A DNA stretch of 64,000 nt from Escherichia coli (GTDB taxonomy: Bacteria; Pseudomonadota; Gammaproteobacteria; Enterobacterales; Enterobacteriaceae): the NCBI RefSeq assembly GCF_045037415.1, contig NZ_CP173438.1. One strand, given 5' to 3'. Positions 1 to 34,267 of the stretch are shown here, piece by piece. Numbering within the stretch: the first letter of the stretch is position 1; every line of letters starts with the position of its first letter. Made by a program: the position numbers and the translations under genes. The notes beneath the pieces are model-generated. The model did not search any database. It was not told where the DNA came from and saw only the letters and a list, made by a program, of their open reading frames with translations.

Positions 1-10
1 AGGGCAAAAC

Positions 11-433
11 TCAGCTCACCGTCGAACACTTTCCCGCAGAAACAGGCTCTGCAGGCCCGGCGTCCTCTGCCTGTTCGGGGGCATTATTCACCACAAACTC
101 ATACATACCGGACAGCCGGTACACCACGTTTTCAGCATGAGAAATTGCCTCTGTGGGCCAGGTGGTAAGCACTTCCTGCTCAATCTGTTTAACGGCTTCA
201 TTCATGGACGGCATCTGCGTCTTCTTCGGATGGTTATGCCACAGGGACATCGCCACCAGAAACGCGCCGGTTCTGATGACGTCTTCCACAGTAACCTGCC
301 GGTTGCTGTCGGATCCCGCCGGTTCTGCCTGCCGTTTCATCAGGGCAAGATGCTCAATACGCTGCAGGGCTGACAGTTCAGAAAGCGTGACGGTCACGCC
401 GTTATATTCAAATGATTCGGTTTTCAGGAACAT
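11..433 (-). CDS. G: Tail assembly chaperone gpG
   Basis: 140-aa ORF MFLKTESFEYNGVTVTLSELSALQRIEHLALMKRQAE... matches recalled lambda G nearly residue for residue. Confidence 0.9.
   Translation of the reverse strand: MFLKTESFEYNGVTVTLSELSALQRIEHLALMKRQAEPAGSDSNRQVTVEDVIRTGAFLVAMSLWHNHPKKTQMPSMNEAVKQIEQEVLTTWPTEAISHAENVVYRLSGMYEFVVNNAPEQAEDAGPAEPVSAGKCSTVS
29..35 (-). other. Programmed -1 ribosomal frameshift slippery heptamer GGGAAAG for the G-T fusion
   Basis: Plus-strand ctttccc is the reverse complement of GGGAAAG and falls on the Gly-Lys codons near the 3' end of G, as in lambda; the gpT frame continues beyond the window start. Confidence 0.6.
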
Positions 434-448
434 CGCTGACTCTCCGGA

Positions 449-1189
449 TTAACTGGCGGTGACGGTGATTTCTGCAACCGCAGCAAACTCACCATTACCG
501 GATACAACCGGAATGTTGACCTTGCCTGCAGCAACGCCGTTCACGGTGATGGTCATACCGCTGACCGACACGGTGGCTTTTGTTTTATCCGCAGACACCG
601 CACGGAAGCTCTTGTCGGTTGCGCCCTCCGGCTGGAATGCCACGGTCAGCGTAGTGCTCTGCCCTTTCACTACGGAAGCACTGGCGGGTGTCACCGTCAT
701 GCCGGTTGTCGCCGTCACCGTGCTGCGATCTTCTGCCATCGACGGACGTCCCACGTTGGTGACTTTCACCGTGCGGGTGATCACTTCCTTCGCCGTCACC
801 GCCTTACCGATACTGCTGACCCAGCCGCGGAACACATCGACCGTGCCGTTCGGGAAGCGGATTTTATAGGCACGGGTATCCCCTTCATTAAACCACGCCA
901 GCAGCGCCTGCTGCCCCTGCTCTCCGGGCATCCACGCCAGCGTGAAGCTGGTATCTCCGGCAGATTTCTGCCCCTGCCCGGTCGCAGTCCAGTCCGCATC
1001 TTCATCATCGAGATAGCTGTCGTCATAGGACTCAGCGCTCAGTTCGCCGGGCGTCAGGTCTTTAACTTTAGCCAGACGCGACCAGTCAACGTCTGAAAGC
1101 GGGTTCGCATAAGGGTCACCGTTCCCCTTATAAACCCACAGGGTGGTCCCGGCCCCTTTCACCGGCATTACTGGATTTGGTACAGGCAT
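449..1189 (-). CDS. V: Major tail protein gpV with C-terminal Ig-like domain
   Basis: ORF 449..1219; [36 protein letters not shown]... matches lambda V; start placed at the internal Met that aligns with lambda. Confidence 0.9.
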
Positions 1190-1196
1190 ATCGTCC

Positions 1197-1592
1197 TCAC
1201 ATTTCATAGGTAATGACATAAGTCAGATCGGCTGAACTCCACAGGCCCGCATCATCGTCGCGCCGGTAGTCATAGCCACTGGCCACCATACTGGTGATCA
1301 AATCTGACAGTGCCGGGACATCGCTCATCACCGGATAAATCCGGGACTCCATCCACGAATCCAGCTCTGAATCCGGCACCTGAGCAGGCAGGAAAACTTC
1401 AATATGCAGCTCCGCCTGCCAGGTATCGCTGTCCAGCTCTTCGCCCGTGTATTCAGCGCCGGTGAGATAAACGGCAACTGCCGGAAAATCCTCCTCATCA
1501 AAAACAGCGGGGCGACCATCAAAAAGCGTCGCCCCGGTGTCATGTTTTTCCAGTGCATCCAGTACGGCTGCACGGAGTTCTGTATGTTTCAT
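1197..1592 (-). CDS. U: Tail terminator protein gpU
   Basis: [56 protein letters not shown]... matches lambda U. Confidence 0.9.
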
Positions 1593-2167
1593 CGCTTTAT
1601 TACCATCCTCAGTTGATGCTGCAGCGCATAGCCCAGCTCTTTCGGAAGACGTTCACGCCGTATCCGCTCAATATTCTGTTTAAACGCCGTGGTCAGCGGC
1701 ACTGCCATCGGGATTTTCACCACATCAATGGGGTAACGGTTTTTCCCGGCCACACGCTGCATGACATGCCATCGGCCATTTTTCAGTTGCTGAATAAACG
1801 CGCCGGGAATACGACGGTTTCCCACCACAAGCACGCTGTCGCCACCTTTCAGGGATGAACGCTGCCCCTTTTTACGACGCCTGCGTCGGGACAGGACAAC
1901 CCGCGCGTTACCCAGCCTGATTACGGGCAAATCCCCCCGGTTAACCTTGATTCTGGCCTGCGGATTTTTGACCGTGGCCCTTTTCAGCCTGGCCCTTTCC
2001 TTTACCAGTTTCCGGCGTACCTTTGTCTCACGGGCAACCTGTGACGCCGACTGCGATATCGCGGATGAAGCAACGCGGTTAATGGCCATTGCGGCGGCAC
2101 CGGGCACCGCCGTTCTGCTGATACGGCTGAGGTTTTCAACGGCCTGCTCAAGACCTTTTATGGCCAT
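1589..2167 (-). CDS. Z: Tail completion protein gpZ
   Basis: MAIKGLEQAVENLSRISRTAVPGAAAMAINRVASSAISQSASQVARETKVRRKLVKERARLK... matches lambda Z; overlaps the U start by 4 nt. Confidence 0.9.
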   Translation of the reverse strand: MAIKGLEQAVENLSRISRTAVPGAAAMAINRVASSAISQSASQVARETKVRRKLVKERARLKRATVKNPQARIKVNRGDLPVIRLGNARVVLSRRRRRKKGQRSSLKGGDSVLVVGNRRIPGAFIQQLKNGRWHVMQRVAGKNRYPIDVVKIPMAVPLTTAFKQNIERIRRERLPKELGYALQHQLRMVIKR

Positions 2168-2178
2168 ACATCCCCCCT

Positions 2179-2532
2179 TCAGCGACGACGGTTAACGGCA
2201 GGCGGCACGCCACGCCCAAGCCAGAGATGACAGCTTCCGCCATCATCCGTCGAAATCCGGTCTATCCAGAAGTTTTCCTCACCGATGGTCAGCGTGTCGC
2301 CGCGCCGCAGCTGCCGCACATCATCAGTCCGGACAAACAGGGACGGGCTGGAGCCTTCAACGCGCACGCCCTGTCCGGCATAGCTGATATTTTCAGGGTC
2401 ATCAAAAACACCACGTATTACTGCGCCGGACTGCTCACCGGATGTCATGGTGGCTGACGTTCCCATGTACCCGCGTATCGTTTCATCGGCGCGGACAATG
2501 GCAGCATCGAACAGGTTATCGAAATCAGCCAC
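2179..2532 (-). CDS. FII: Head-tail connector protein gpFII
   Basis: MADFDNLFDAAIVRADETIRGYMGTSATMTSGEQSGAVIRGVFDDPENISYAGQG... matches lambda FII. Confidence 0.9.
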   Translation of the reverse strand: MADFDNLFDAAIVRADETIRGYMGTSATMTSGEQSGAVIRGVFDDPENISYAGQGVRVEGSSPSLFVRTDDVRQLRRGDTLTIGEENFWIDRISTDDGGSCHLWLGRGVPPAVNRRR

Positions 2533-2543
2533 AGCGCCTCCCG

Positions 2544-2942
2544 TTATTGCATTCTGGCCAGGCCACGTTCTGTCATTTCGGCTGCCACACCGGCAGAGAC
2601 ACGGAACGCCGTTCCCGGAAGCACAAATGCCACAGGTTCATCCCGCGTGGCGTGAAGTGCATCAGTATGCAGCGTCACCAGTGCCACGACCGTGACCAGT
2701 TCAGACGTATCCAGAATCACGGTATCCGGCTGCGCTGATCCCACCTCATTTTCATGTCCGGTCAGCACATTTTCCCGGCTGAGAGGGGTGTCCTGACCGG
2801 CAGTTTCATCCGTGTCATCAAGCTCCTCTTCCAGCTCTGCCACACGGAGCGCCAGTTCTTCTTTCGTCCCCGTCAGGCTGACATCACGGTTCAGTTGTTC
2901 ACCCAGCGAGCGGAGACGGGCAATCAGTTCATCTTTCGTCAT
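2544..2942 (-). CDS. FI: DNA packaging protein gpFI
   Basis: ORF 2544..2981; start placed at internal MTKDELIARLRSLGEQLNRDVSLTGTKEELALRVAELEEELDD..., which matches lambda FI. Confidence 0.85.
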   Translation of the reverse strand: MTKDELIARLRSLGEQLNRDVSLTGTKEELALRVAELEEELDDTDETAGQDTPLSRENVLTGHENEVGSAQPDTVILDTSELVTVVALVTLHTDALHATRDEPVAFVLPGTAFRVSAGVAAEMTERGLARMQ

Positions 2943-2983
2943 GGACTCCTCCACAGAGAAACAATGGCCCCGAAGGGCCATGA

Positions 2984-4009
2984 TTACGCCAGTTGTACGG
3001 ACACGAACTCATCAGGGTCAGCCAGCAGCATCAGCGGTGCTGACTGAATCATGGTGAACTCACGCGCCGGATCGCCGGTGGTCACCCAGTTTTTCGGGTA
3101 ACGGGCAGAGGCGTTAATGCCTTCGAGCTGTGCGTCCGCATCCTGAATGCAGCCATAGGTGCGCAGACCGCGTGCCTGAGTGTTCCCCAGCACCATCGTG
3201 TTGTCCGGCAGGAAGTTCTTTTTGACGCCGTTTTCCACGTACTGTCCGGAATACACGACGATGGCCACATCGCCATACATCCCCTTATAGGACACCGCTT
3301 TACCCAGGTCTTTCACCGCTGTCTCCAGCTCGGAATTAGAACCACGACGGGTATCCAGCTTCTCCTTGACGGCTTTGAAGGAACGGAACAGCGCCCAGCC
3401 TTTCGGATCGAACACGATGATATTCACCACACCGCTGGCGTTCAGCGCGTAGGCTTCGATATCGTCGGTCGGGTCATACGTGGACTTGTCACGCTTGCTC
3501 CACTCCGTGCCGCCGGACTGCGTGATGTTATTCTCCTCACTGCGGCCCATATCCACCTCAACCGGATCGAAGGCTTCACCGGTCATGGTGTATTTGCCCT
3601 TAAGCACGGCAGAAACTGCCTGCATCTCTTCGACCTGAGCAATGGCCAGCTCTTCGTCACGCATGTTCTGCATGATGATGCGACGGCGGCGGTAAGCCGG
3701 GTCCACCAGATTCTGCGGATCTTCATCCGGCAGGCGACGCAGGGTCATCTGCGGATTCACTTCATGCTTCGGCTTGACATATCCCGGCGTAAATTCAGAG
3801 GTGGAGCCGCCACGGGAACGGATAACCTCACCGGAAACAATCGGCGAAACGTACAGCGCCATGTTTACCAGTCCCGGAATTTGTGAGAGATAGACTTTCT
3901 CCGTGGTGAAGGGATAGCTCTCACGGAAAAAGAGACGCAGAAACAGCGGATCAAACTTAAATTTCTGCTCATTTGCCGCCAGCAGCTGGGCGGTTGTGTA
4001 CATCGACAT
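2984..4009 (-). CDS. E: Major capsid protein gpE
   Basis: ORF 2984..4036; from MSMYTTAQLLAANEQKFKFDPLFLRLFFRESYPFTTEKVYLSQIPGLVNMALYVSP... matches lambda E over its full length. Confidence 0.95.
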   Translation of the reverse strand: MSMYTTAQLLAANEQKFKFDPLFLRLFFRESYPFTTEKVYLSQIPGLVNMALYVSPIVSGEVIRSRGGSTSEFTPGYVKPKHEVNPQMTLRRLPDEDPQNLVDPAYRRRRIIMQNMRDEELAIAQVEEMQAVSAVLKGKYTMTGEAFDPVEVDMGRSEENNITQSGGTEWSKRDKSTYDPTDDIEAYALNASGVVNIIVFDPKGWALFRSFKAVKEKLDTRRGSNSELETAVKDLGKAVSYKGMYGDVAIVVYSGQYVENGVKKNFLPDNTMVLGNTQARGLRTYGCIQDADAQLEGINASARYPKNWVTTGDPAREFTMIQSAPLMLLADPDEFVSVQLA

Positions 4010-4064
4010 AAAAAAATCCCGTAAAAAAAGCCGCACAGGCGGCCTTTAGTGATGAAGGGTAAAG

Positions 4065-4397
4065 TTAAACGATGCTGATTGCCGTTCCGGCAAACGCGGT
4101 CCGTTTTTTCGTCTCGTCGCTGGCAGCCTCCGGCCAGAGCACATCCTCATAACGGAACGTGCCGGACTTGTAGAACGTCAGCGTGGTGCTGGTCTGGTCA
4201 GCAGCAACCGCAAGAATGCCAACGGCAGCACCGTCGGTGGTGCCATCCCACGCAACCAGCTTACGGCTGGAGGTGTCCAGCATCAGCGGGGTCATTGCAG
4301 GCGCTTTCGCACTCAATCCGCCGGGCGCGGTTGCGGTATGAGCCGGGTCACTGTTGCCCAGCGGCTGGTAATGGGTAAAGGTTTCTTTGCTCGTCAT
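4065..4397 (-). CDS. D: Head decoration protein gpD
   Basis: [56 protein letters not shown]... matches lambda D. Confidence 0.9.
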
Positions 4398-4406
4398 AAA
4401 CATCCC

Positions 4407-5012
4407 TTACACTGGTGTGTTCAGCAAATCGTTAACGGCATCAGATGCCAGGTTACCTGCAGCCAGCGGTGCCGGTGCCCCCTGCATCAGACGATCCAGC
4501 GCAGTGTCACTGCGCGCCTGTGCACTCTGTGGTGCAACTGCCAGAATGCGGCGGGCCGTTTCCACGGTCATACCAGGGGTTTCGGCCAGCACGCGTGCCT
4601 GTTCTTCGCGTCCGTGAGCTTCCTCACAGTTGAGGATCCCCATAATGCGACTGTTTTCTGCCGCAACCGCTGCGGTGATCTGCGCGTTCACGTCCGGCTG
4701 CGCAGCGCTGGCGTTCTCGCCCTCCGTCGCTGGCACCACGCCAGTAACGTCAGCCTGCGAAGCAGTGGCTGAAACAGTTGTTGATTGAGTCTCTTTGGTC
4801 ATTCGCCCTCCTGAGAGACGGGATTTACGTGCATCCAGTGCATCACGCATGACGGTGATCGCATCGGTACTGTTAACAAGTTCATCAGCCAGTCCGGCAT
4901 CAATGGCCTCCTGACCGCTGTACACTGCAGCCTCGGTATCCAGCACAGCCTGCACGGACAGGCCGGTATATGCCGACACCTTCTGTGCAAACATCCGGCG
5001 GGTTGCATCCAT
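4407..5012 (-). CDS. Nu3: Capsid scaffolding protein gpNu3, in-frame C-terminal part of C
   Basis: In lambda, Nu3 is the last about 201 codons of the C reading frame; an internal Met (MDATRRMFAQKVSAYTGL...) sits exactly 201 codons before the stop. Confidence 0.6.
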   Translation of the reverse strand: MDATRRMFAQKVSAYTGLSVQAVLDTEAAVYSGQEAIDAGLADELVNSTDAITVMRDALDARKSRLSGGRMTKETQSTTVSATASQADVTGVVPATEGENASAAQPDVNAQITAAVAAENSRIMGILNCEEAHGREEQARVLAETPGMTVETARRILAVAPQSAQARSDTALDRLMQGAPAPLAAGNLASDAVNDLLNTPV

Positions 5013-5706
5013 CCGGGACTGCAGTGTTTCCCGGACATCATCCGGTAGATGGCTGTAGGGGTTGCCATCCACCTTATGGCTGCCGCTGTAAATCAGCGTG
5101 ATTTCCACGCCCTGTTTCTCCAGCGCAGCACCGTAATTACTGTGAGCCATCATGACGCCGATGGAGCCTGTCCGGGCGGTCTGCGTGACCAGACGTCGGG
5201 AGGCGGCGCTGGCAAGCAACTGACCTGCACTGCAGTTCATGTCGTTGGCCAGCGCCCATACCGGCTTTATGTCACGCACACGGGCGATGATGTCAGCGCA
5301 GTCAAATGCCCCTGCCACCATCCCGCCTGGCGTATCCATATCGAGCAGAATGCCGTCCACCATCGGGTCGCTGGCAGCCTGTTGCAGACGGGCGATAATG
5401 CCGTTGTAACCGGTCATCCCCGAATACGGCTGCAGCGCTCGCGTCCGACTGACCAGCGTGCCGGACACCGGCAGCACGGCGATGCCGTTCATGACCTGAT
5501 AACTGCGGGCCTGTCGTGGTCCGTCATCATCAACGGATAACGCCAGCGCCGCGGGTGCCTCTCCGGCAGTCAGGCTGTCGCCGGATACCGCATCCGTCAG
5601 GCGGCTGATCCCAAGCTGGCCTGCAAGCGCACAAAAGAAAACCCGCGCATAGGCGGGTTCAAGCATCAGCGGCTCATTAAAGGCCATACTGGCAATATGC
5701 GGGAGA

Positions 5707-5729
<23 letters not shown>
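4407..5729 (-). CDS. C: Minor capsid protein / prohead protease gpC (S49 peptidase family)
   Basis: ORF 4407..5861; from (V)TAELRNLPHIASMAFNEPLMLEPAYARVFFCALAGQLGI... matches lambda C; probable GTG start overlapping the end of B. Confidence 0.85.
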
Positions 5730-9407
<3,678 letters not shown>

Positions 9408-9433
<26 letters not shown>

Positions 9434-9953
9434 TCAGCAACCCCGGTATCAGTTCATCCAGCGCGGCTGCTTTGTTCATGGCTTTGATGATATCCCGTTT
9501 CAGGAAATCAACATGTCGGTTTTCCAGTTCCGGAAAACGCCGCTGCACCGACAGGGGGATCCCGTCGAGAATACTGGCAATTTCACCTGCGATCCGCGAC
9601 AGCACGAAAGTACAGAATGCGGTTTCCACCACTTCAGCGGAGTCTCTGGCATTTTTCAGCTCCTGTGCGTCGGCCTGCGCACGCGTAAGTCGATGGCGTT
9701 CGTACTCAATAGTCCCTGGCTGGAGATCTGTCTCGCTGGCCTGTCGCAGTTCTTCAACCTCCCGGCGCAGCTTTTCGTTCTCAATTTCAGCATCCCTTTC
9801 GGCATACCATTTTATGACGTCGGCAGAGTCATAAAGCACCTCATTACCCTTCCCACCGCCTCGCAGAACGGGCATTCCCTGCTCCTGCCAGTTCTGAATA
9901 GTACGGATACTCGCGCCGAAAATGTCAGCCAGCTGCTTTTTGTTGACTTCCAT
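9408..9953 (-). CDS. Nu1: Terminase small subunit gpNu1
   Basis: 181 aa, MEVNKKQLADIFGASIRTIQNWQEQGMPVLRGGGKGNEVLYDSADVIKWYAERD... matches lambda Nu1. Confidence 0.95.
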
Positions 9954-10130
9954 TGTTCATTCCACGGACAAAAACAGAGAAAGGAAACGACAGAGGCCAA
10001 AAAGCCCGTTTTCAGCACCTGTCGTTTCCTTTCTTTTCAGGGAGTGTTTTAAATAAAAACATTAAGTTACGGCGAAGAAGAACGGAAACGCCTTAAACCG
10101 GAAAATTTTCATAAATAGCGAAAACCCGCG

Positions 10131-10142
10131 AGGTCGCCGCCC
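10131..10142. other. cos site: 12-nt cohesive-end sequence (cosN), with cosB-like sequence toward Nu1
   Basis: aggtcgccgccc is the reverse complement of the lambda cohesive end GGGCGGCGACCT; flanking sequence (cgcgggttttcgctatttatgaaaattttcc, reverse complement) matches the lambda left end. Confidence 0.85.
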
Positions 10143-10290
10143 CGTAACCTGTTGGATCGACGGAAAGGACCCGAAAACGAGAATAATTATCACTTACAGC
10201 AAGAATCGAATCTGATCTATTATGGTGCTTGCTATTATGTGCCGGCACAAGTGCGTCGTTTACCGTCATTTCACACAGAGGCATCATCAA

Positions 10291-10542
10291 ATGAAAATCA
10301 GAAATATTCTCGCTATCTCCCTTGCGACATCATCCTTCAGTTGCCTGGCATTTAAATCCTCGCCCAATGTGCTACCAGGACCAACGAATCAACTAACTGC
10401 GGTAGAAAGTAAAATTATCGGACATTTTTATGCCCCACACAGTACATTACCCGGAACAACCATCACAGGGACATGTGACGCCTCCCCCGTCCCGGGATGC
10501 ACCTGTCCGTTTTGTACTATGCTGCGTAGCCAAAACCGATAA
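10291..10542 (+). CDS. Hypothetical small secreted Cys-containing protein (predicted signal peptide)
   Basis: ATG at 10291 in frame with ORF 10222..10542; MKIRNILAISLATSSFSCLAFKSS... has a hydrophobic N-terminus; weak GAGG upstream; low GC; no homolog recognised. Confidence 0.35.
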   Translation: MKIRNILAISLATSSFSCLAFKSSPNVLPGPTNQLTAVESKIIGHFYAPHSTLPGTTITGTCDASPVPGCTCPFCTMLRSQNR

Positions 10543-10603
10543 CATCCGCATTTACCTGGTATTCCATGATGAGTTCACGCAGCGACTGATAGAGGAAGGA
10601 AAG

Positions 10604-10783
10604 ATGGTTAGTAAAAGCAAGGCGCATTGCCGCCGCATGCTGCAGGCATTGCAACAGACGAGAGCAGGTATTTTTGACCAGTTGGAAAACTGCCAGCATA
10701 CTTTGCCCGAGTATATCGCCATCTCATCGGAAACCAGTGCAACTCTTATTCATCGGGTTCCACCAGAGAAAAAGAAGAAATGA
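10604..10783 (+). CDS. Hypothetical small protein (59 aa)
   Basis: ATG at 10604 preceded by gaggaaggaaag (Shine-Dalgarno-like); in frame with ORF 10430..10783; MVSKSKAHCRRMLQALQQTRAGIFDQLENCQHTLPEYIAISSETSATLIHRVPPEKKKK. Confidence 0.3.
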   Translation: MVSKSKAHCRRMLQALQQTRAGIFDQLENCQHTLPEYIAISSETSATLIHRVPPEKKKK

Positions 10784-10905
10784 ACAGTGAGGCGTTGTGT
10801 GGCATACAACGCCTTCTTCCATCATTCCTCGTCAGCCATGACAAAAATATAACCGCTGGCTCTTTCATTTTTCTCCTGCTTCCAGCCCCTCTCTACCTGG
10901 AAGCA

Positions 10906-11232
10906 TCAAGGACGTGACGGCGTAAAGATAAATTGTCTCTTCACTCCCTGACAGGGGCGATTCTTTTCAAATCGCCATTTCGCCATGGCCTTCACCACTT
11001 CATCACGAAACAAATTATGAGGCTCTGAGCGGAGAAAAACGATCCGTGTCACAGTCCCATCAGCACCAATATCGAACTTAACCTCAACCAGCCCCTTGAT
11101 ATAATTTGCTGCAGCATATTCCGGATATCGTGGATACACCGTCACTAATTGCCGGGGCTCATCAGCTTTTTGCTGCGAGCATCCCACTGCCAGGACAGAT
11201 AACAGAAAAAGTAGTAAAAGGCGTCTTTTCAT
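10906..11232 (-). CDS. Lipoprotein with TonB C-terminal-like domain (prophage accessory gene)
   Basis: ORF 10906..11286; start at MKRRLLLLFLLSVLAVGC (lipobox AVGC) preceded by AGGA; the C-terminal region (YPRYPEYAAANYIKGLVEVKFDIGADGTVTRIVFLRSEPHNLFRDEVVKAMAKWRF) has the TonB_C-like motif pattern. Confidence 0.6.
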   Translation of the reverse strand: MKRRLLLLFLLSVLAVGCSQQKADEPRQLVTVYPRYPEYAAANYIKGLVEVKFDIGADGTVTRIVFLRSEPHNLFRDEVVKAMAKWRFEKNRPCQGVKRQFIFTPSRP

Positions 11233-11712
11233 TTTTATTCCTACGGGTCTTATTCTGACAATATATCCTGTGTTCCAGACTGCCACATCACCACATCCTG
11301 TGCCATTATCTGACTCACATTACATACATCGCATCGGGATACAGTAGTAGCACTTTCTGTAATACAGCTTCCTGTTTCTTCCACCATCGCACCGGGATAA
11401 ACCCGCGAATCATTAACGCGGTAAAAACCCGGTGTGCATCGTTTTTAATTATTCCCGCACACTCACGCAGAAGGAATTCCCCGTCGGGCTACGGTCATGG
11501 TTAATGCGGGAATACGGCGACGATACAGCGCAGCTAAAAGGGTAATGGACGGATAGACCGGTTTATTTCATTCCACAGGATTCTGAGTGTCCCCAACTTC
11601 CTCCAATAGTCTGAGCCCACCTGTGTAGTTTTAATTTTCATCAATCCATTTAACTATCGTTTAATTGTTGTCACATAGGATTCTGCCGTTTTTAACAATG
11701 CAGGATAATAAG

Positions 11713-12006
11713 ATGAAAAAAATGTTGTTTTCTGCCGCTCTGGCAATGCTTATTACAGGATGTGCTCAACAGACGTTTACTGTTGGAAACAAACCTACAG
11801 CAGTAACACCAAAGGAAACCATCACCCATCATTTCTTCGTTTCGGGAATTGGGCAGAAGAAAACTGTCGATGCAGCAAAAATTTGTGGTGGTGCAGAAAA
11901 TGTTGTTAAAACAGAAACCCAGCAAACATTCGTAAATGGATTGCTCGGTTTTATTACTTTAGGCATTTATACTCCGCTGGAAGCGCGTGTGTATTGCTCA
12001 CAATAA
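11713..12006 (+). CDS. bor: Bor outer-membrane lipoprotein (serum-resistance, Iss family)
   Basis: MKKMLFSAALAMLITGCAQQTFTVGNKPTAVTPKETITHHFFVSGIGQKKTVDAAKICGGAENVVKTETQQTFVNGLLGFITLGIYTPLEARVYCSQ matches lambda Bor; lipobox ITGC. Confidence 0.9.
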   Translation: MKKMLFSAALAMLITGCAQQTFTVGNKPTAVTPKETITHHFFVSGIGQKKTVDAAKICGGAENVVKTETQQTFVNGLLGFITLGIYTPLEARVYCSQ

Positions 12007-12037
12007 TTGCATGAGTTGCCCATCGATATGGGCAGCT

Positions 12038-12499
12038 CTATCTGCACTGCTCATTAATATACTTCTGGGTTCCTTCCAGTTGTTTTTGCATAGTGATCAG
12101 CCTCTCTCTGAGGGTGAAATAATCCCGTTCAGCGGTGTCTGCCAGTCGGGGGGAGGCTGCATTATCCACGCCGGAGGCGGTGGTGGCTTCACGCACTGAC
12201 TGACAGACTGCTTTGATGTGCAACCGACGACGACCAGCGGCAACATCATCACGCAGAGCATCATTTTCAGCTTTCGCATCAGCTAACTCCTTCGTGTATT
12301 TTGCATCGAGCGCAGCAACATCACGCTGACGCATCTGTATGTCAGTAATTGCCGCGTTCGCCAGCGTCAGTTCTCTGGCATTTTTGTCGCGCTGGGCTTT
12401 GTAGGTAATCGCGTTATCGCGGTAATGATTAACCGCCCATGAAAGGCAGACGATGACGCAGATAACCAGAGCGGAGATAATCGCGGTTATTCTGCTCAT
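12038..12499 (-). CDS. Rz: Inner-membrane spanin Rz
   Basis: 153 aa, [51 protein letters not shown]... matches lambda Rz. Confidence 0.9.
12097..12279 (-). CDS. Rz1: Outer-membrane lipoprotein spanin Rz1, embedded in Rz in the +1 frame
   Basis: 60 aa, [60 protein letters not shown] matches lambda Rz1; lipobox and proline-rich segment. Confidence 0.85.
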
Positions 12500-12972
12500 A
12501 CCTCACTCTCTCTGAGCGTTCCGCCAGCTTCTTTGAATTTTGCAATCAGGCTGTCAGCCTTATGCTCGAACTGACCATAACCAGCGCCCGGCAGTGAAGC
12601 CCAGATATTGCTGCAACGGTCGATTGCCTGACGGATATCACCGCGATCAATCATCGGTAAAGCACCACGCTCTTTAATCTGCTGTAATGCCACTGCGTCC
12701 TGGCTTTTGGGGGAGAAGTCTTTCAAACCAAGCTGTTTACGGTAAGCATCCCACCAGCGTGAAAGAAGCTGATAACGTCCGGCGGCTGTTGATTTGAGTT
12801 TGGGGTGTAGCGTGACAAGTTTGCGAGGGTGATCGGAGTAATCAGTAAACAGTTCGCCGCCAACAATAACATCATAACCGTGGTTACGTGTCGGTTGTCG
12901 CCCGTTATCCGTTCCTTCTGACCACGCCAACATATCGAGGAAGGCTTTACGCTGAGGATTAAGATTTTGCAT
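12496..12972 (-). CDS. R: Endolysin R (lytic transglycosylase)
   Basis: 158 aa, ...[80 protein letters not shown]... matches lambda R. Confidence 0.9.
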
Positions 12973-22700: not shown

Positions 22701-23652
22701 CTGCAACATTATCGCTGCTAAGCTGTTCAGCCAAGGAAACGCCCGGGCGATAATTAAACTCAACACCAAAGGTTGTATCGTGAGTGTTGCTCTGTCCTTG
22801 CTTATGCTGTGCAGAAAACTTAATCAGAGGAACTGGTGTATAAGAAATTCCCCCAGTAACTGCGTAAGGGTTTTCCTGCAGGTTATCGCTTCCAAATAAC
22901 CCGACATTTTTACCATAATATTTTTCAAACTGAATAGATGCCCCTAATTGCGGATAAGCAGGTAGCCATCCTTCAGCAGAAAAATCCCAGCCATTTGCAG
23001 GTCTTTCCAGATAATCATCAATATCACGACTGTTCTTCCAGTCAGATAGACCAAAATAGGTATTTACACCAAGCCTGAAATAATCCCTCCAGTACTCAAC
23101 CCCAAAACCTGCACGAGAGTGACTACGACTTAAATCGTAATCATAGAAAACATTCGCACCCAACATTGCGTTATCAGGAGTGAAATGACGAATCCCCAAA
23201 CCAATATTGGTCTGATTTCGGTCATCAGTACGATGTAGTGATGTCTGACTGAATAACACATAATCCTGAGTATCCAGCCATGGATATAAAAAGTCGAATG
23301 ATGAATCCTTCAAGGAAAAAGAATCATCGACATTAAGCTTGATGCGCGCATTGCCATATTGTTGCAACCAGTCGACGACCTCTTTTGTCGCCTGAGTTGA
23401 TAAAGTATTTACAGCAAAACTACTTGCATTATTATTCGCCAGGCTCTGACCTGCACTTGCTGCAAATGAGGCCACTTTATTTGCATGCTCATCGCTGGCA
23501 TAAATTTGCGTAACATCTTTATTACCAGATGATGCAAAACTGTTTGCTGGGATCAAAGAAAGAGAAACTGGAGATAATATCTGGGTAACAATTACCGACC
23601 ATGTAATCGCGCCAGATGCAGTTTTTTTTAACTTTTTATTCACAGTGGTCAT
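19744..23652 (-). CDS. Intimin/invasin-family inverse autotransporter adhesin with multiple bacterial Ig-like (Big) domains
   Basis: 1302 aa; signal-peptide-like N-terminus; region ...LYPWLDTQDYVLFSQTSLHRTDDRNQTNIGLGIRHF...GFGVEYWRDYFRLGVNTYFG...ERPANGWDFSAEGWLPAYPQLGASIQFEKYYG...YDFVERNNNIVLEYKKK closely parallels the recalled intimin beta-barrel domain; then a long Thr/Ser/Val-rich repetitive passenger; AT-rich upstream region. Confidence 0.85.
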   Translation of the reverse strand: MTTVNKKLKKTASGAITWSVIVTQILSPVSLSLIPANSFASSGNKDVTQIYASDEHANKVASFAASAGQSLANNNASSFAVNTLSTQATKEVVDWLQQYGNARIKLNVDDSFSLKDSSFDFLYPWLDTQDYVLFSQTSLHRTDDRNQTNIGLGIRHFTPDNAMLGANVFYDYDLSRSHSRAGFGVEYWRDYFRLGVNTYFGLSDWKNSRDIDDYLERPANGWDFSAEGWLPAYPQLGASIQFEKYYGKNVGLFGSDNLQENPYAVTGGISYTPVPLIKFSAQHKQGQSNTHDTTFGVEFNYRPGVSLAEQLSSDNVAVMREVQNRRYDFVERNNNIVLEYKKKHALKISLPESVQGEGESIIPVTLTINNASGGIKSVQWNDSAFTAAGGKISGNGTSWQITLPAYKSEGVNSWNVGATVQDNRGNVSNYAVMNISVTDSGVSTADSSFTLDGDSSPTISADSQSTYPIVLSLKDSNGKALTGLADDIEMSVEFTADSNSARQRETVTAPSLGAVEEISAGVYRSVLTAGSQAGTVRVTAKVQGKTFTLNIKQAAITDSDVSTADSSFTLDGDSSPTISADSQSTYPIVLSLKDSNGKALTGLADDIEMSVEFTADSNSARQRETVTAPSLGAVEEISAGVYRSVLAAGSQAGTVRVTAKVQGKTFTLSIKQTATTEPDSEVSAVLTAAPAEQVVGYNINLQLAVKDSQGNAITGDNTLSFYALNQAEGVEFGTVTEKDGVYSATVTSKRAGKITIGVKSDSHDFSGVKKEITFIEDRQQVTFSQFEASQNNALADGKQRNMVTVSLADRFGNVVPGYAVTLSLPAGITQVGGEHAVSTDENGNAIFALISSTPGSYVITAHAGSQMSTELTVTFASNMTGASLSLTPESSSLISNIPANGKDAAVLDVQLTNTNASVNGQKIQLITSSEGLSVPTNIVTDSTGHVSVPLTTVKAGEYTVTARVTDGSHSVESGSVKLTFVPDVASAELNMSVSKQEIVADGSENATVNIQLVDANNNAFTGEVDLTITPSTGASLTSSNLQLDAHGQATTQFTASKSGQYTIQAEYVLDGKRITASQNIDAVTDVKGAVLEITSSASSAVVSDTNNLVFTLLLKSKSGEALSGRALNVKTSGPSKYGALVVDKTTVTTDENGQATVSVHGRTVGSYKLTATLNELGSDVSAVKSFSLYADDANGVLTLTKDPGYETNDGSPVGIYARFVDHFGNPLSGTVEFSAGSEDSPDSQRVKMEPATVTLHWTGNAASEFSTYESGYHWIKAKITNSKNTYEKTIRTYVVKLPEKDS
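21628..22350. repeat. Near-perfect tandem direct duplication (2 x 357 bp) inside the adhesin gene, encoding a duplicated 119-aa Ig-like domain
   Basis: gcttaatactgagagtaaatgtttttccctgaacttttgcagttacacg... recurs 357 bp later with a few substitutions; protein shows two almost identical blocks (...STADSSFTLDGDSSPTISADSQSTYPIVLSLKDSNGKALTGLADDIEMSVEFTADSNSARQRETVTAPSLGAVEEISAGVYRSVL...); plus-strand shadow ORFs 21904..22119 and 22261..22446 translate identically. Confidence 0.9.
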
Positions 23653-31534: not shown

Positions 31535-31771
31535 ATGTCTCGACTAATCACTTTACAGGACTGGGCTAAAGAAGAATTTGGGGACTTAGCACCAAGTGAG
31601 CGAGTTCTGAAAAAATACGCGCAAGGGAAAATGATGGCCCCACCCGCTATAAAAGTTGGTCGCTACTGGATGATTGACCGAAATTCCCGTTTTGTAGGAA
31701 CGCTTGCAGAACCGCAACTCCCAATAAACGCAAACCCAAAACTCCAAAGGATAATCGCTGATGGCTGCTAG
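31535..31771 (+). CDS. xis: Excisionase (Xis)
   Basis: 78 aa immediately upstream of and overlapping int; preceded by gaggagg; MSRLITLQDWAKEEFGDLAPSERVLKKYAQGKMMAPPAIKVGRYWMIDRNSRF... resembles lambdoid excisionases. Confidence 0.75.
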   Translation: MSRLITLQDWAKEEFGDLAPSERVLKKYAQGKMMAPPAIKVGRYWMIDRNSRFVGTLAEPQLPINANPKLQRIIADGC

Positions 31772-32903
31772 ACCCCGATCTCACAAAATCTCTATACCCA
31801 ATTTATATTGCAAATTAGATAAGCGAACCGGAAAGGTATATTGGCAATACAAACATCCACTATCCGGTCGTTTTCATAGCTTAGGAACTGATGAGAATGA
31901 AGCAAAACAAGTTGCTACTGAAGCAAATACCATTATTGCTGAACAACGTACCAGACAAATATTAAGCGTCAATGAGCGTCTGGAAAGAATGAAAGGCAGG
32001 CGCTCAGACATTACGGTGACAGAATGGCTTGATAAATATATTTCTATCCAAGAGGACAGGCTGCAACATAATGAACTAAGACCCAACTCCTATCGGCAAA
32101 AAGGCAAACCCATTCGTCTTTTCCGTGAGCATTGTGGAATGCAACACCTCAAGGATATTACCGCACTTGATATTGCCGAAATAATTGATGCTGTAAAGGC
32201 TGAAGGTCATAACAGGATGGCGCAAGTCGTGAGAATGGTGTTGATCGACGTCTTCAAAGAAGCACAACACGCAGGACATGTTCCGCCAGGATTTAACCCA
32301 GCGCAGGCAACAAAACAACCGCGAAATCGAGTAAACCGCCAAAGATTGTCACTGCCCGAATGGCAGGCAATATTTGACAGCGTAAGCAGACGGCAGCCCT
32401 ATTTAAAATGCGGCATGCTACTTGCTCTTGTTACTGGACAACGTTTAGGCGATATCTGCAATTTGAAATTCTCTGATATATGGGACGACATGTTGCACAT
32501 TACTCAGGAAAAAACCGGTTCAAAACTTGCTATTCCGCTTAACCTGAAATGCGATGCTCTGAATATTACCCTTCGTGAAGTTATATCTCAGTGCAGGGAT
32601 GCTGTTGTTAGTAAATATCTGGTCCATTACCGTCACACTACCTCTCAAGCAAACAGAGGAGACCAGGTTTCTGCAAATACTCTGACAACGGCTTTTAAAA
32701 AGGCCCGGGAAAAATGTGGCATAAAATGGGAGCAAGGAACTGCGCCCACATTTCATGAGCAGCGATCTCTGTCAGAACGGTTATATCGGGAACAGGGTCT
32801 GGATACGCAAAAGTTGTTAGGCCATAAATCCAGAAAAATGACCGACCGATACAATGATGATCGTGGTAAAGACTGGATTATCGTAGATATCAAAACAGCA
32901 TAG
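31761..32903 (+). CDS. int: Tyrosine-family site-specific integrase (icd-targeting, phage 21/e14-like)
   Basis: 380 aa; C-terminal catalytic region (...HEQRSLSERLY...LGHKSRKMTDRY...) typical of lambda-family integrases; last prophage gene before icd. Confidence 0.9.
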   Translation: MAARPRSHKISIPNLYCKLDKRTGKVYWQYKHPLSGRFHSLGTDENEAKQVATEANTIIAEQRTRQILSVNERLERMKGRRSDITVTEWLDKYISIQEDRLQHNELRPNSYRQKGKPIRLFREHCGMQHLKDITALDIAEIIDAVKAEGHNRMAQVVRMVLIDVFKEAQHAGHVPPGFNPAQATKQPRNRVNRQRLSLPEWQAIFDSVSRRQPYLKCGMLLALVTGQRLGDICNLKFSDIWDDMLHITQEKTGSKLAIPLNLKCDALNITLREVISQCRDAVVSKYLVHYRHTTSQANRGDQVSANTLTTAFKKAREKCGIKWEQGTAPTFHEQRSLSERLYREQGLDTQKLLGHKSRKMTDRYNDDRGKDWIIVDIKTA

Positions 32904-33016: not shown

Positions 33017-34267
33017 TTACATATTCTTGATGATCGCGTCACCAAACTCTGAACATTTCAGCAGTTTAGCGCCTTCCATCAGACGTTCGAAGTCATAGGT
33101 TACGGTCTTGGCATTGATTGCGCCTTCCATACCTTTAACAATCAGGTCAGCCGCTTCAGTCCAACCCATATGGCGCAGCATCATCTCAGCGGAGAGAATA
33201 ATAGAGCCTGGGTTTACTTTGTCCTGTCCGGCATATTTCGGCGCAGTACCGTGGGTGGCTTCAAACAGGGCGCATTCGTCACCGATGTTTGCGCCAGGGG
33301 CGATACCGATACCACCAACCTGCGCTGCCAGGGCGTCAGAAATGTAGTCACCGTTCAGGTTCATACAGGCGATAACATCATATTCAGCCGGACGCAGCAG
33401 GATCTGTTGCAGGAATGCATCAGCAATCACGTCTTTAATGACGATCTCTTTGCCGGTATTCGGGTTTTTAACTTTCAGCCACGGGCCGCCGTCGATCAGT
33501 TCACCGCCAAATTCTTCACGCGCCAGTTGGTAGCCCCAGTCTTTAAACGCGCCTTCGGTGAACTTCATGATGTTGCCTTTGTGCACCAGGGTCACAGAGT
33601 CACGATCGTTAGCAATTGCGTATTCGATCGCTGCACGAACCAGACGTTTGGTGCCTTCTTCCGAACACGGCTTAATACCGATACCGCAATGTTCCGGGAA
33701 GCGAATTTTCTTCACGCCCATCTCTTCACGCAGGAATTTAATCACTTTCTCAGCGTCGGCAGAGTCTGCTTTCCATTCGATACCCGCATAAATGTCTTCC
33801 GAGTTTTCACGGAAGATAACCATATCGGTCAGTTCAGGGTGTTTAACCGGGCTTGGAGTGCCCTGATAGTAACGTACCGGACGCAGGCAGATGTAGAGAT
33901 CCAGTTCCTGGCGCAGGGCAACGTTCAGAGAGCGAATACCGCCACCAACCGGAGTGGTCAGCGGGCCTTTAATGGCAACGCGATATTCACGAATCAGATC
34001 AAGGGTTTCAGCAGGCAACCAGACGTCCTGACCATAAACCTGTGTGGATTTTTCACCGGTGTAAATTTCCATCCAGGAGATTTTACGCTCGCCTTTATAG
34101 GCTTTCTCGACTGCAGCGTCGACCACTTTCAGCATGGCTGGGGTTACATCTACACCGATTCCATCACCTTCAATGTAAGGGATAATCGGATTTTCAGGAA
34201 CGTTGAGTTTGCCGTTTTGCAGGGTGATCTTCTTGCCTTGTGCCGGAACAACTACTTTACTTTCCAT
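33017..34267 (-). CDS. icd: NADP-dependent isocitrate dehydrogenase
   Basis: 416 aa, [73 protein letters not shown]... matches E. coli Icd; known integration target of phage 21/e14-type integrases. Confidence 0.97.

Follow-up and report, generated by a model that had tools for sequence, protein, structure and literature searches.

Background

The described systems closest to the one considered here are phage lipoproteins that exclude phages and engineered fragments of TonB. Llp of T5 and Cor of phi80, HK022, N15, and mEp167 are lipoproteins of the inner leaflet of the outer membrane, which sit on the periplasmic face of FhuA and exclude phages. Llp targets only FhuA, the receptor of its own phage, whose surface loops it closes allosterically. 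As for TonB, its fragments 33–239, 103–239, and 122–239 inhibit the TonB system when they are located in the periplasm, and ferrichrome transport was again lost when another group later exported TonB fragments (both in bioRxiv 10.1101/2020.01.05.895219). Reference structures of the TonB C-terminal domain include 1U07 and 1XX3, as well as 2GSK and 2GRX, in which it is bound to BtuB and FhuA, respectively. The present analysis concerns a 64,000-nucleotide stretch of Escherichia coli DNA (contig NZ_CP173438.1; the whole stretch is referred to as the window), which contains a lambda-like prophage in reverse orientation. At 10906–11232 on the minus strand this prophage carries a gene for a 108-amino-acid lipoprotein with a stand-alone TonB C-terminal (TonB_C) domain, as indicated by its open reading frame (ORF), Pfam and NCBIfam matches, fold, ratio of non-synonymous to synonymous substitution rates (dN/dS), and published transcription.

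The gene itself is already known, being annotated and published as an expressed moron (PMC9928086). It is called "TonB family protein" by the Prokaryotic Genome Annotation Pipeline (PGAP; WP_000830178.1), CPT_21_73 in phage 21, and LF82_160, "TonB fragment", in prophage Perceval of strain LF82, where the copy is 100% identical. The LF82 study, which plots transcription per strand, lists LF82_160 as a moron with an 8-fold excess over the prophage background in LB medium (PMC9928086, Table 1).

A lipoprotein with a complete TonB domain

The 108-amino-acid lipoprotein is a complete TonB receptor-binding domain minus the membrane anchor and the proline-rich spacer. The Pfam TonB_C family PF03544 matches residues 33–99 (10936–11136, minus strand) with an E-value of 9.1e-13, and NCBIfam model TIGR01352 gives 47.4 bits against its cutoff of 27.1. 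Equivalog models of full-length TonB, in contrast, reach 45–69 bits against cutoffs of 265–448 and are aligned to their last 80 positions only. Neither the proline-rich spacer nor the N-terminal membrane anchor that engages ExbB/ExbD is present. The best PDB sequence matches are the E. coli TonB C-terminal domains 1u07, 1xx3, 2gsk_B, and 2grx_C (E ~1e-14). Residues 24–103 align to E. coli TonB 151–230 without a gap, and in the alignment that reaches TonB 235 the identity is 38% (33 of the 86 aligned residues).

According to the AlphaFold2 model, which was built from a 25-row alignment of relatives, the predicted local distance difference test (pLDDT) is at least 90 across the core. Foldseek superposes this model on the TonB domains 1u07 and 1xx3, the BtuB-bound 2gsk_B, and the FhuA-bound 2grx_C, with a root-mean-square deviation (rmsd) of 0.8–1.0 Å and a target-normalised template modelling (TM) score of 0.86–0.94; for the best matches TM reaches 0.90–0.94. 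Among the side chains that are functionally important in TonB, Y163, F180, G186, F202, W213, and F230 are identical in the lipoprotein, and Y215 is replaced by Phe. The C-terminus, FIFTPSRP, contains no hydrophobic segment.

The start of the gene is equally well defined. A Shine-Dalgarno sequence, AGGA, can be read on the minus strand at 11239–11242, 6 nucleotides upstream of the ATG, and a ribosome-binding site is annotated at the matching place in phage 21. Codons 1–18 (11179–11232, minus strand) encode a signal peptide with lipobox, so that the N-terminus reads MKRRLLLLFLLSVLAVGC and then SQQ. The layout MKRR-LLLLFLLSVLAVG-C-S matches a PROSITE PS51257-style pattern, with lipobox LAVGC, Cys18, and Ser at position +2. 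It has the features of an outer-membrane lipoprotein signal, namely positive charge in the n-region, hydrophobicity in the h-region, a Cys in the lipobox, and a residue other than Asp at +2. By the Lol +2 rule, Ser at this position predicts anchoring in the inner leaflet of the outer membrane, and from the sequence we infer both lipidation and sorting to that membrane. Between Cys18 and Pro26, which aligns with TonB P153, there are 7 residues (SQQKADE).

These results bear out part of what had been noticed earlier from the letters alone. An earlier note on this DNA had described a 108-amino-acid lipoprotein with an AVGC lipobox and a good Shine-Dalgarno sequence, whose mature part looked like a TonB C-terminal domain, and had named the absence of a TonB_C match in a profile search as one outcome that would speak against its hypothesis of exclusion. 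Both observations hold, the former by Cys18 and the spacing of AGGA from the ATG and the latter by PF03544, TIGR01352, and the fold, and the profile match is unambiguous. The same note had pictured a free domain in the periplasm, which has to be given up, as Ser at +2 predicts an outer-membrane anchor.

Distribution, selection, and transcription

Identical or nearly identical copies of the TonB_C gene, almost always intact, are found in 1224 of 5426 complete E. coli genomes (22.6%), and strain EC958 of sequence type 131 (ST131) is among the carriers. More diverged alleles of the protein are encoded at locus L008 (85% identity) and in JLK-2012, Stx1a-converting phages, Lys8385Vzw, and locus L009 (67–72%), and the relative in Klebsiella phage ST13-OXA48phi12.4 has 41% identity. 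The length is 108 amino acids in all E. coli alleles and about 111 in the Klebsiella relative when counted from its likely start. The lipobox is kept in every allele as well as in the Klebsiella relative, with Ser, Thr, or Ala at +2. Against three alleles the dN/dS of the gene is 0.10–0.19, with synonymous sites near saturation. The gene is thus under purifying selection, as a member of a family that has been maintained rather than as a remnant.

The place of the TonB_C gene is the same in all phages examined: it is on the late strand, just after the holin-endolysin-spanin genes and before the terminase genes. The backbones of the carriers differ, some having cos/Nu1-A packaging and others HNH-TerS-TerL, and in JLK-2012, Stx1a-type, and Klebsiella phages the gene is present without bor and without the gene for an 83-amino-acid protein that accompanies it in the window. 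The TonB_C proteins of all these phages fall into PHROG 1267 (E 5e-43 over the whole length for the protein considered here). An exhaustive profile-free search returned many further short proteins (107–133 amino acids, 35–46% identity) that combine a lipobox with one TonB_C domain. The two that were looked up have an ordinary chromosomal context, one by ahpCF and a glutathione S-transferase gene and the other by usp and an acetyltransferase gene.

As for transcription, the supplements of PMC9928086 report log2(fpkm+5), where fpkm stands for fragments per kilobase per million mapped and the floor of the scale is 2.32. LF82_160 has values of 5.0–6.6 in all five conditions, while two adjacent late genes, Rz and the small terminase gene, have 2.3–3.7 and 2.3–4.3, respectively. 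Host tonB varies from 4.15 to 7.17 across conditions, and in stationary LB culture the TonB_C gene and tonB are close to each other (5.58/5.99 vs 5.61/5.63). Since LF82_160 is high while Rz and terminase stay near the floor, it is transcribed on its own in the lysogen, in amounts similar to tonB. The published RNA sequencing of LF82 therefore supports a moron that is transcribed in the lysogen independently of the lytic programme. During lytic growth, the late transcript must also read the TonB_C gene.

Proposed role and alternative explanations

From the sequence and by analogy, we tentatively propose that the lipoprotein jams TonB-dependent import by TonB mimicry, a reading to which we give slightly less than an even chance. 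On its tether of about 7 residues, the lipoprotein would show a complete but unenergised TonB C-terminal domain, which is made from its own lysogen transcript and would adjoin the periplasmic face of TonB-dependent transporters. Such a domain would occupy the TonB boxes of these transporters and of incoming group B colicins without pulling, and would thereby compete with scarce real TonB. The lysogen would then be expected to be partly resistant to TonB-dependent phages (T1, phi80, and the like) and to colicins B, D, Ia, Ib, and M, as well as to siderophore-microcins and siderophore-drug conjugates, and the expected cost would be reduced uptake of siderophores and B12. Both the TonB-box binding and any exclusion phenotype are what we infer for this protein. 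What makes such a decoy plausible is the dominant-negative inhibition that periplasmic TonB fragments exert. LamB is the listed receptor of phage 21, a carrier of the identical gene, and for this reason exclusion would hit other phages and bacteriocins rather than phages of its own kind. An Llp-like block on the phage's own receptor was considered and set aside as improbable, as phage 21 uses LamB and the Stx1a/JLK-2012 and Klebsiella carriers have unrelated backbones; the tail-tip genes of the present prophage lie outside the window. Perceval-like prophages pair the TonB_C gene with the TonB-independent metal importer SitABCD.

Extended from this protein to its family, the proposal becomes doubtful, if still worth stating. 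The temperate-phage lipoproteins of PHROG 1267 would then be natural anti-TonB decoys, each of them a lipid-anchored TonB receptor-binding domain without a motor, which lower susceptibility to everything that hijacks TonB-dependent gates. The range covered by this equally doubtful extension would include phages of the T1 and phi80 types, siderophore microcins along with group B colicins, and perhaps siderophore-antibiotic conjugates such as cefiderocol and albomycin.

Several points weigh against the decoy. TonB residues Q160 and R166, which are implicated in contacts with the TonB box and with receptors, correspond to Tyr33 and Tyr39 in the lipoprotein. Position 226 in strand beta-3 is basic in the lipoprotein family and hydrophobic in TonBs. 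The tether, at about 7 residues, is very short. A scan of the minus strand over 11233–11714 found no sigma-70 consensus promoter, the total count of the scan being equal to the shuffled expectation. The gene is carried and transcribed in many extra-intestinal pathogenic lineages, e.g., ST131, for which a strong TonB block seems costly because they depend on TonB-dependent iron uptake. Chromosomal relatives of the same short type, set among ordinary neighbours, argue for a native cellular role in which phages need have no part. A literature search, finally, found no functional study of a phage TonB_C lipoprotein and turned up neither binding nor phenotype data. Structure prediction with a fused peptide speaks neither for nor against the decoy, as the positive control behaved in the same way: when the Ton box of BtuB (QDTSPDTLVVTANRFEQ) was fused to the mature domain via 30 Gly, AlphaFold2 folded the domain and left the peptide disordered (pLDDT ~40), and in the positive control with E. 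coli TonB 150–235 in the same fusion the peptide was equally disordered (pLDDT ~40).

Other roles can be envisaged for the same domain. It might serve, without any relation to TonB boxes, as a generic module close to the outer membrane, which binds peptidoglycan, a periplasmic binding protein, or another outer-membrane protein, and might alter serum or stress resistance jointly with bor/iss and the 83-amino-acid protein. The loss of Q160 and R166 would fit such an envelope conversion, as would the occurrence of short TonB_C lipoproteins on chromosomes outside phages and the cluster of envelope morons in this prophage, which comprises bor/iss, the 83-amino-acid protein, and, elsewhere in the prophage, an intimin-like autotransporter. 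In Salmonella salamae, moreover, a homologue of the 83-amino-acid protein is encoded beside bor and an omptin. Nevertheless, the domain is closer to enterobacterial TonB (38% identity, 1.0 Å, aromatic core) than a generic scaffold needs to be, and its gene recurs in JLK-2012, Stx1a-type, and Klebsiella phages in the absence of both bor and the 83-amino-acid gene, so we regard envelope conversion as unlikely. TonB-dependent import could also be damped through another target, if the domain paired with the C-terminal domain of host TonB or with the periplasmic domain of ExbD and trapped the energy transducer at the outer membrane. Crystals of isolated C-terminal domains of E. coli TonB do contain dimers (1u07, the best structural match, has two chains, and 1ihr was matched as well), and the inhibition by periplasmic TonB fragments was credited to receptor blocking before the periplasmic contact between TonB and ExbD was known (bioRxiv 10.1101/2020.01.05.895219). 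However, a paper is entitled "The TonB dimeric crystal structures do not exist in vivo" (PMC3005593), and a domain tethered at the outer membrane by some 7 residues would hardly reach ExbD near the inner membrane. We therefore consider such a trap distinctly unlikely.

Two database labels point to yet other explanations, both of which we find very improbable. PHROG 1267 is labelled "Rz-like spanin" and placed in the lysis category, a match (E 5e-43) that extends to the Klebsiella and other relatives, and the TonB_C gene lies just downstream of the holin-endolysin-spanin genes on the late strand in every phage examined. Taken together, this could indicate an accessory lysis protein, spanin-like, that aids or times the disruption of the outer membrane. 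The gene anatomy, on which this reading was rejected, is nevertheless different from that of a spanin. A complete Rz/Rz1 pair already exists in this prophage and in other carrier phages, and the TonB_C gene lies about 800 nucleotides away from Rz/Rz1, beyond bor, with neither overlap nor adjacency to an i-spanin gene. In JLK-2012 and Lys8385Vzw, antirepressor-type morons lie between it and Rz. The product is a compact globular TonB domain without a C-terminal membrane segment, the gene is transcribed in lysogens in which the lysis genes are silent, and the slot after the lysis genes is a usual site of morons, bor included. By gene anatomy and fold the PHROG label is a mislabel, probably caused by the position near the lysis genes. 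The names "TonB fragment" and "partial tonB-like", in turn, suggest that a host tonB was captured and left a decaying, functionless fragment; of TonB, no more than the final third is represented, and truncated or frameshifted copies do exist. Against such decay stand the dN/dS of 0.10–0.19 among alleles with saturated synonymous sites, the gain of a lipoprotein signal that is conserved across genera down to 41% identity, the constant length of 108 amino acids in E. coli alleles, the almost always intact presence in 22.6% of complete E. coli genomes, and a transcript of its own. The remnant reading was rejected on selection, on the gained lipobox, and on expression.

If the decoy proposal is true, the lipoprotein would provide the first case of natural inhibition of the TonB system through TonB mimicry, and would represent a new, receptor-independent form of exclusion conferred by a prophage. 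On the more doubtful family-wide reading, about one fifth of complete E. coli genomes, ST131 included, would carry a modifier of sensitivity to phages, bacteriocins, and drugs that is common yet unrecognised. With 1224 carriers among 5426 genomes, including many clinical strains of ST131 type, the gene could explain differences between strains in sensitivity to TonB-dependent phages, colicins, and microcins, and this would have a bearing on phage therapy and on siderophore-conjugated antibiotics. If the proposal is wrong, there is still a widespread and expressed prophage lipoprotein, for which the PHROG label "Rz-like spanin" needs correction.

Neighbouring genes and non-coding elements

The interval between cos and bor in which the TonB_C gene lies is about 1.57 kb long and has a GC content of 0.466, compared with 0.567 for the structural genes (1–9953). 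On its left are the genes for the large terminase (7508–9433) and Nu1 (9408–9953), both read on the minus strand, followed by the cohesive-end site cosN at 10131–10142, which can be read in the sequence as AGGTCGCCGCCC (minus strand; reverse complement GGGCGGCGACCT). The end of the phage 21 genome corresponds to position 10143, where a 100% match to the right end of that phage begins; cosQ is annotated 24–30 nucleotides inside this match. The right boundary of the insert is the bor/iss gene for a serum-resistance lipoprotein (11715–12006, plus strand), which is supported by its ORF and by annotation in phage 21, EC958, and others, and which is divergent from the TonB_C gene. Beyond it, on the minus strand, the ORFs of Rz (12038–12499), Rz1 (12097–12279), and endolysin (12496–12972) can be read. 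Over positions 10143–11750, identity with the right end of phage 21 (OL657228.1) is 100%, and the same stretch is 99.9–100% identical in ev017, in Perceval, and in three ECOR-derived phages. In lambda-type phages the insert is absent, and the match is limited to the cos and bor flanks. A second allele of the whole module (L024) is ~98% identical and is found in more than 480 contigs.

Within the insert, the plus strand carries at 10291–10542 a gene for an exported, Cys-rich protein of 83 amino acids, identified as a conserved ORF with low dN/dS. E. coli, Citrobacter, Klebsiella, and Salmonella have homologues of 83 amino acids with 55–77% identity, and locus L008, in which the module is diverged, keeps an ORF of equal length. 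The dN/dS of the 83-amino-acid frame is 0.08–0.17, while four of the five remaining frames exceed 1 and the antisense frame that shares third-codon positions with the gene has 0.18. The signal region of the family contains an invariant SFSC|LAF, readable either as a permissive lipobox or as a site for signal peptidase I, and one UniRef entry names a member of the family "Lipoprotein". The conserved C-terminus, GTCDASPVPGC(S/T)CPFCTMLRS, includes a CPFC motif, which together with four conserved Cys suggests metal or redox chemistry. Searches of Pfam, NCBIfam, PHROG, and PDB gave no match for this protein. Loci of the family include L010 (4001–4252) and L013 (4001–4252). In Salmonella salamae, the homologue that adjoins bor and omptin belongs to an island with a serine protease autotransporter of the Enterobacteriaceae (SPATE) and a novel E3 ligase (NEL) effector, and on Klebsiella plasmids a homologue is found near a Fur-family regulator and a CobW-type GTPase.

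The segment between these two genes (10543–10905) contains two overlapping ORFs, on whose strand annotation pipelines disagree. The 59-amino-acid ORF at 10604–10783 (plus strand) has unsupported coding status, and a 60-amino-acid ORF at 10517–10699 (minus strand) is called instead by PGAP and by the phage 21 annotators. The whole segment is missing from L008, and in the common allele L024 a 1-nucleotide insertion near 10618 (at about 2990–3000 of that locus) shifts both frames. Substitutions of L024 in the 59-amino-acid frame comprise 1 synonymous and 3 non-synonymous. No diverged homologues of the segment were found, and alleles of it differ by 2–5 single-nucleotide polymorphisms. On these data, neither ORF is favoured.

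The earlier note had grouped the TonB_C gene with a small signal-peptide protein and a 59-amino-acid protein as one module in a low-GC insert between cos and bor. The insert is confirmed by its position, by its GC content, and by its absence from lambda-type phages, and the signal-peptide protein turns out to be a real gene (10291–10542, plus strand) by its homologues and dN/dS. The 59-amino-acid protein is not supported, in view of the overlapping ORF, the absence from L008, and the frameshift in L024, and the three ORFs do not form a conserved module because only the TonB_C gene recurs across phage backbones. The observation of the note is thus partly confirmed, being correct for two of the three genes, and its interpretation, that the domain could compete with TonB at TonB-box receptors, is partly supported and a reasonable hypothesis.

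As for non-coding features, a GC-rich hairpin at 10789–10815 (GGCGTTGT...ACAACGCC) has a perfect 8-bp stem and T-rich runs on both strands. Its fold energy is −17 kcal/mol on the plus strand (z −2.3) and −21.3 kcal/mol on the minus strand (z −4.0), a value that none of 200 shuffles equalled on the latter strand. In appearance it is a bidirectional terminator shared by the convergent units of the TonB_C gene (minus strand) and the 83-amino-acid gene (plus strand). Upstream of the TonB_C gene, a conserved non-coding element of ~130–150 nucleotides lies at 11395–11540 on the minus strand. It was recognised by sequence conservation, with 91–98% identity in 67 phage records, and occurs as well in phages devoid of the TonB_C gene, lambda, 434, and Stx phages among them. 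Further copies at L003 2674–2791, L008 552–682, and L024 3774–3910 have 86–95% identity, and the element is more conserved than the flanking genes. Its predicted fold consists of a long hairpin, UAUUCCCGCA...UGCGGGAAUA, and then a second hairpin; covariation is weak, with a compensatory change at only 1 of 36 pairs. The element may be a leader, a structured RNA, an element of the late transcript, or a recombination or mosaic junction. An Rfam scan of 9900–12600 at a permissive threshold gave only chance microRNA-like matches on the cos-proximal hairpin. The sequence GTC(A/G)GATAAT, which is conserved in three alleles ~60–70 nucleotides upstream of the TonB_C gene, was tried and dropped, as it has no usable −35 and matches the Fur box at 10–11 of 19 positions.

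Outside the insert, the prophage is integrated at icd: the icd gene occupies 33017–34267 (416 amino acids, full-length match) and the integrase gene 31761–32903. The site is the attachment site of phage 21, as described for prophage NC-SV of strain NC101; the protective small RNA reported in the NC-SV paper is placed at cI, outside the cos–bor region. A further envelope moron in the early region of the prophage (19744–23652, minus strand) encodes a 1302-amino-acid intimin-like inverse autotransporter adhesin, whose best NCBIfam matches, IatC, intimin, and SinH, are all far under their equivalog cutoffs. Between the Q/nin region and the adhesin gene lie an IS66-family element (transposase 17182–18795, accessory TnpA 19173–19598) and, adjoining it, an alpha/beta-hydrolase or esterase gene (16124–17155).

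Comparison with known systems

The earlier note had likened the TonB_C lipoprotein in its function to Cor and Llp, and this point needs correction, as the protein is unrelated to them in sequence and fold. Among the 50 listed of the 122 PDB matches with E ≤10, none has an Llp-type fold, the FhuA:Llp structure 8A60 included, and PADLOC gave no match for any of the three ORFs. What the protein shares with Llp and Cor is that it is a small phage-encoded lipoprotein with a predicted location in the inner leaflet of the outer membrane. In contrast to them, it would act via the TonB box, which is common to all TonB-dependent transporters.

The same architecture is seen in the proteins of PHROG 1267 and in short TonB_C lipoproteins encoded on gamma-proteobacterial chromosomes, a lipobox and a single TonB_C domain within 107–133 amino acids, at 35–46% identity. 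Several of the chromosomal ones, however, lie in non-phage contexts; no described function was found for them. With Bor/Iss and other lambdoid morons, the TonB_C gene has in common that it is a small lipoprotein gene between the lysis genes and cos, of low GC content and expressed in the lysogen. Unlike bor, which runs against the late operon, it is on the late strand, and the domains are different as well (Lambda_Bor and TonB_C, respectively).

Regarding the E. coli TonB C-terminal domain, the likeness comprises the Pfam domain, the ungapped alignment with 38–40% identity, the beta-alpha-beta-beta-alpha-beta fold at ~1 Å rmsd, and the retained YP motif and aromatic core. The differences are an outer-membrane-type signal in place of the ExbB/ExbD anchor and the proline-rich spacer, the last 4 TonB residues, which are missing in the lipoprotein, and the replacement of Q160 and R166 by Tyr. 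Without the anchor and the spacer, the lipoprotein cannot transduce energy. The engineered TonB fragments 33–239, 103–239, and 122–239, which were exported with a cleavable signal peptide, resemble it in being periplasmic and uncoupled from the inner-membrane motor. Such periplasmic fragments are also said, in work by Howard et al. from 2001, to block phi80 and colicin M. However, they are laboratory-made, soluble, longer, and over-expressed, whereas the phage lipoprotein is natural, has 90 residues in its mature form and a predicted lipid anchor, and is transcribed at about the level of tonB.

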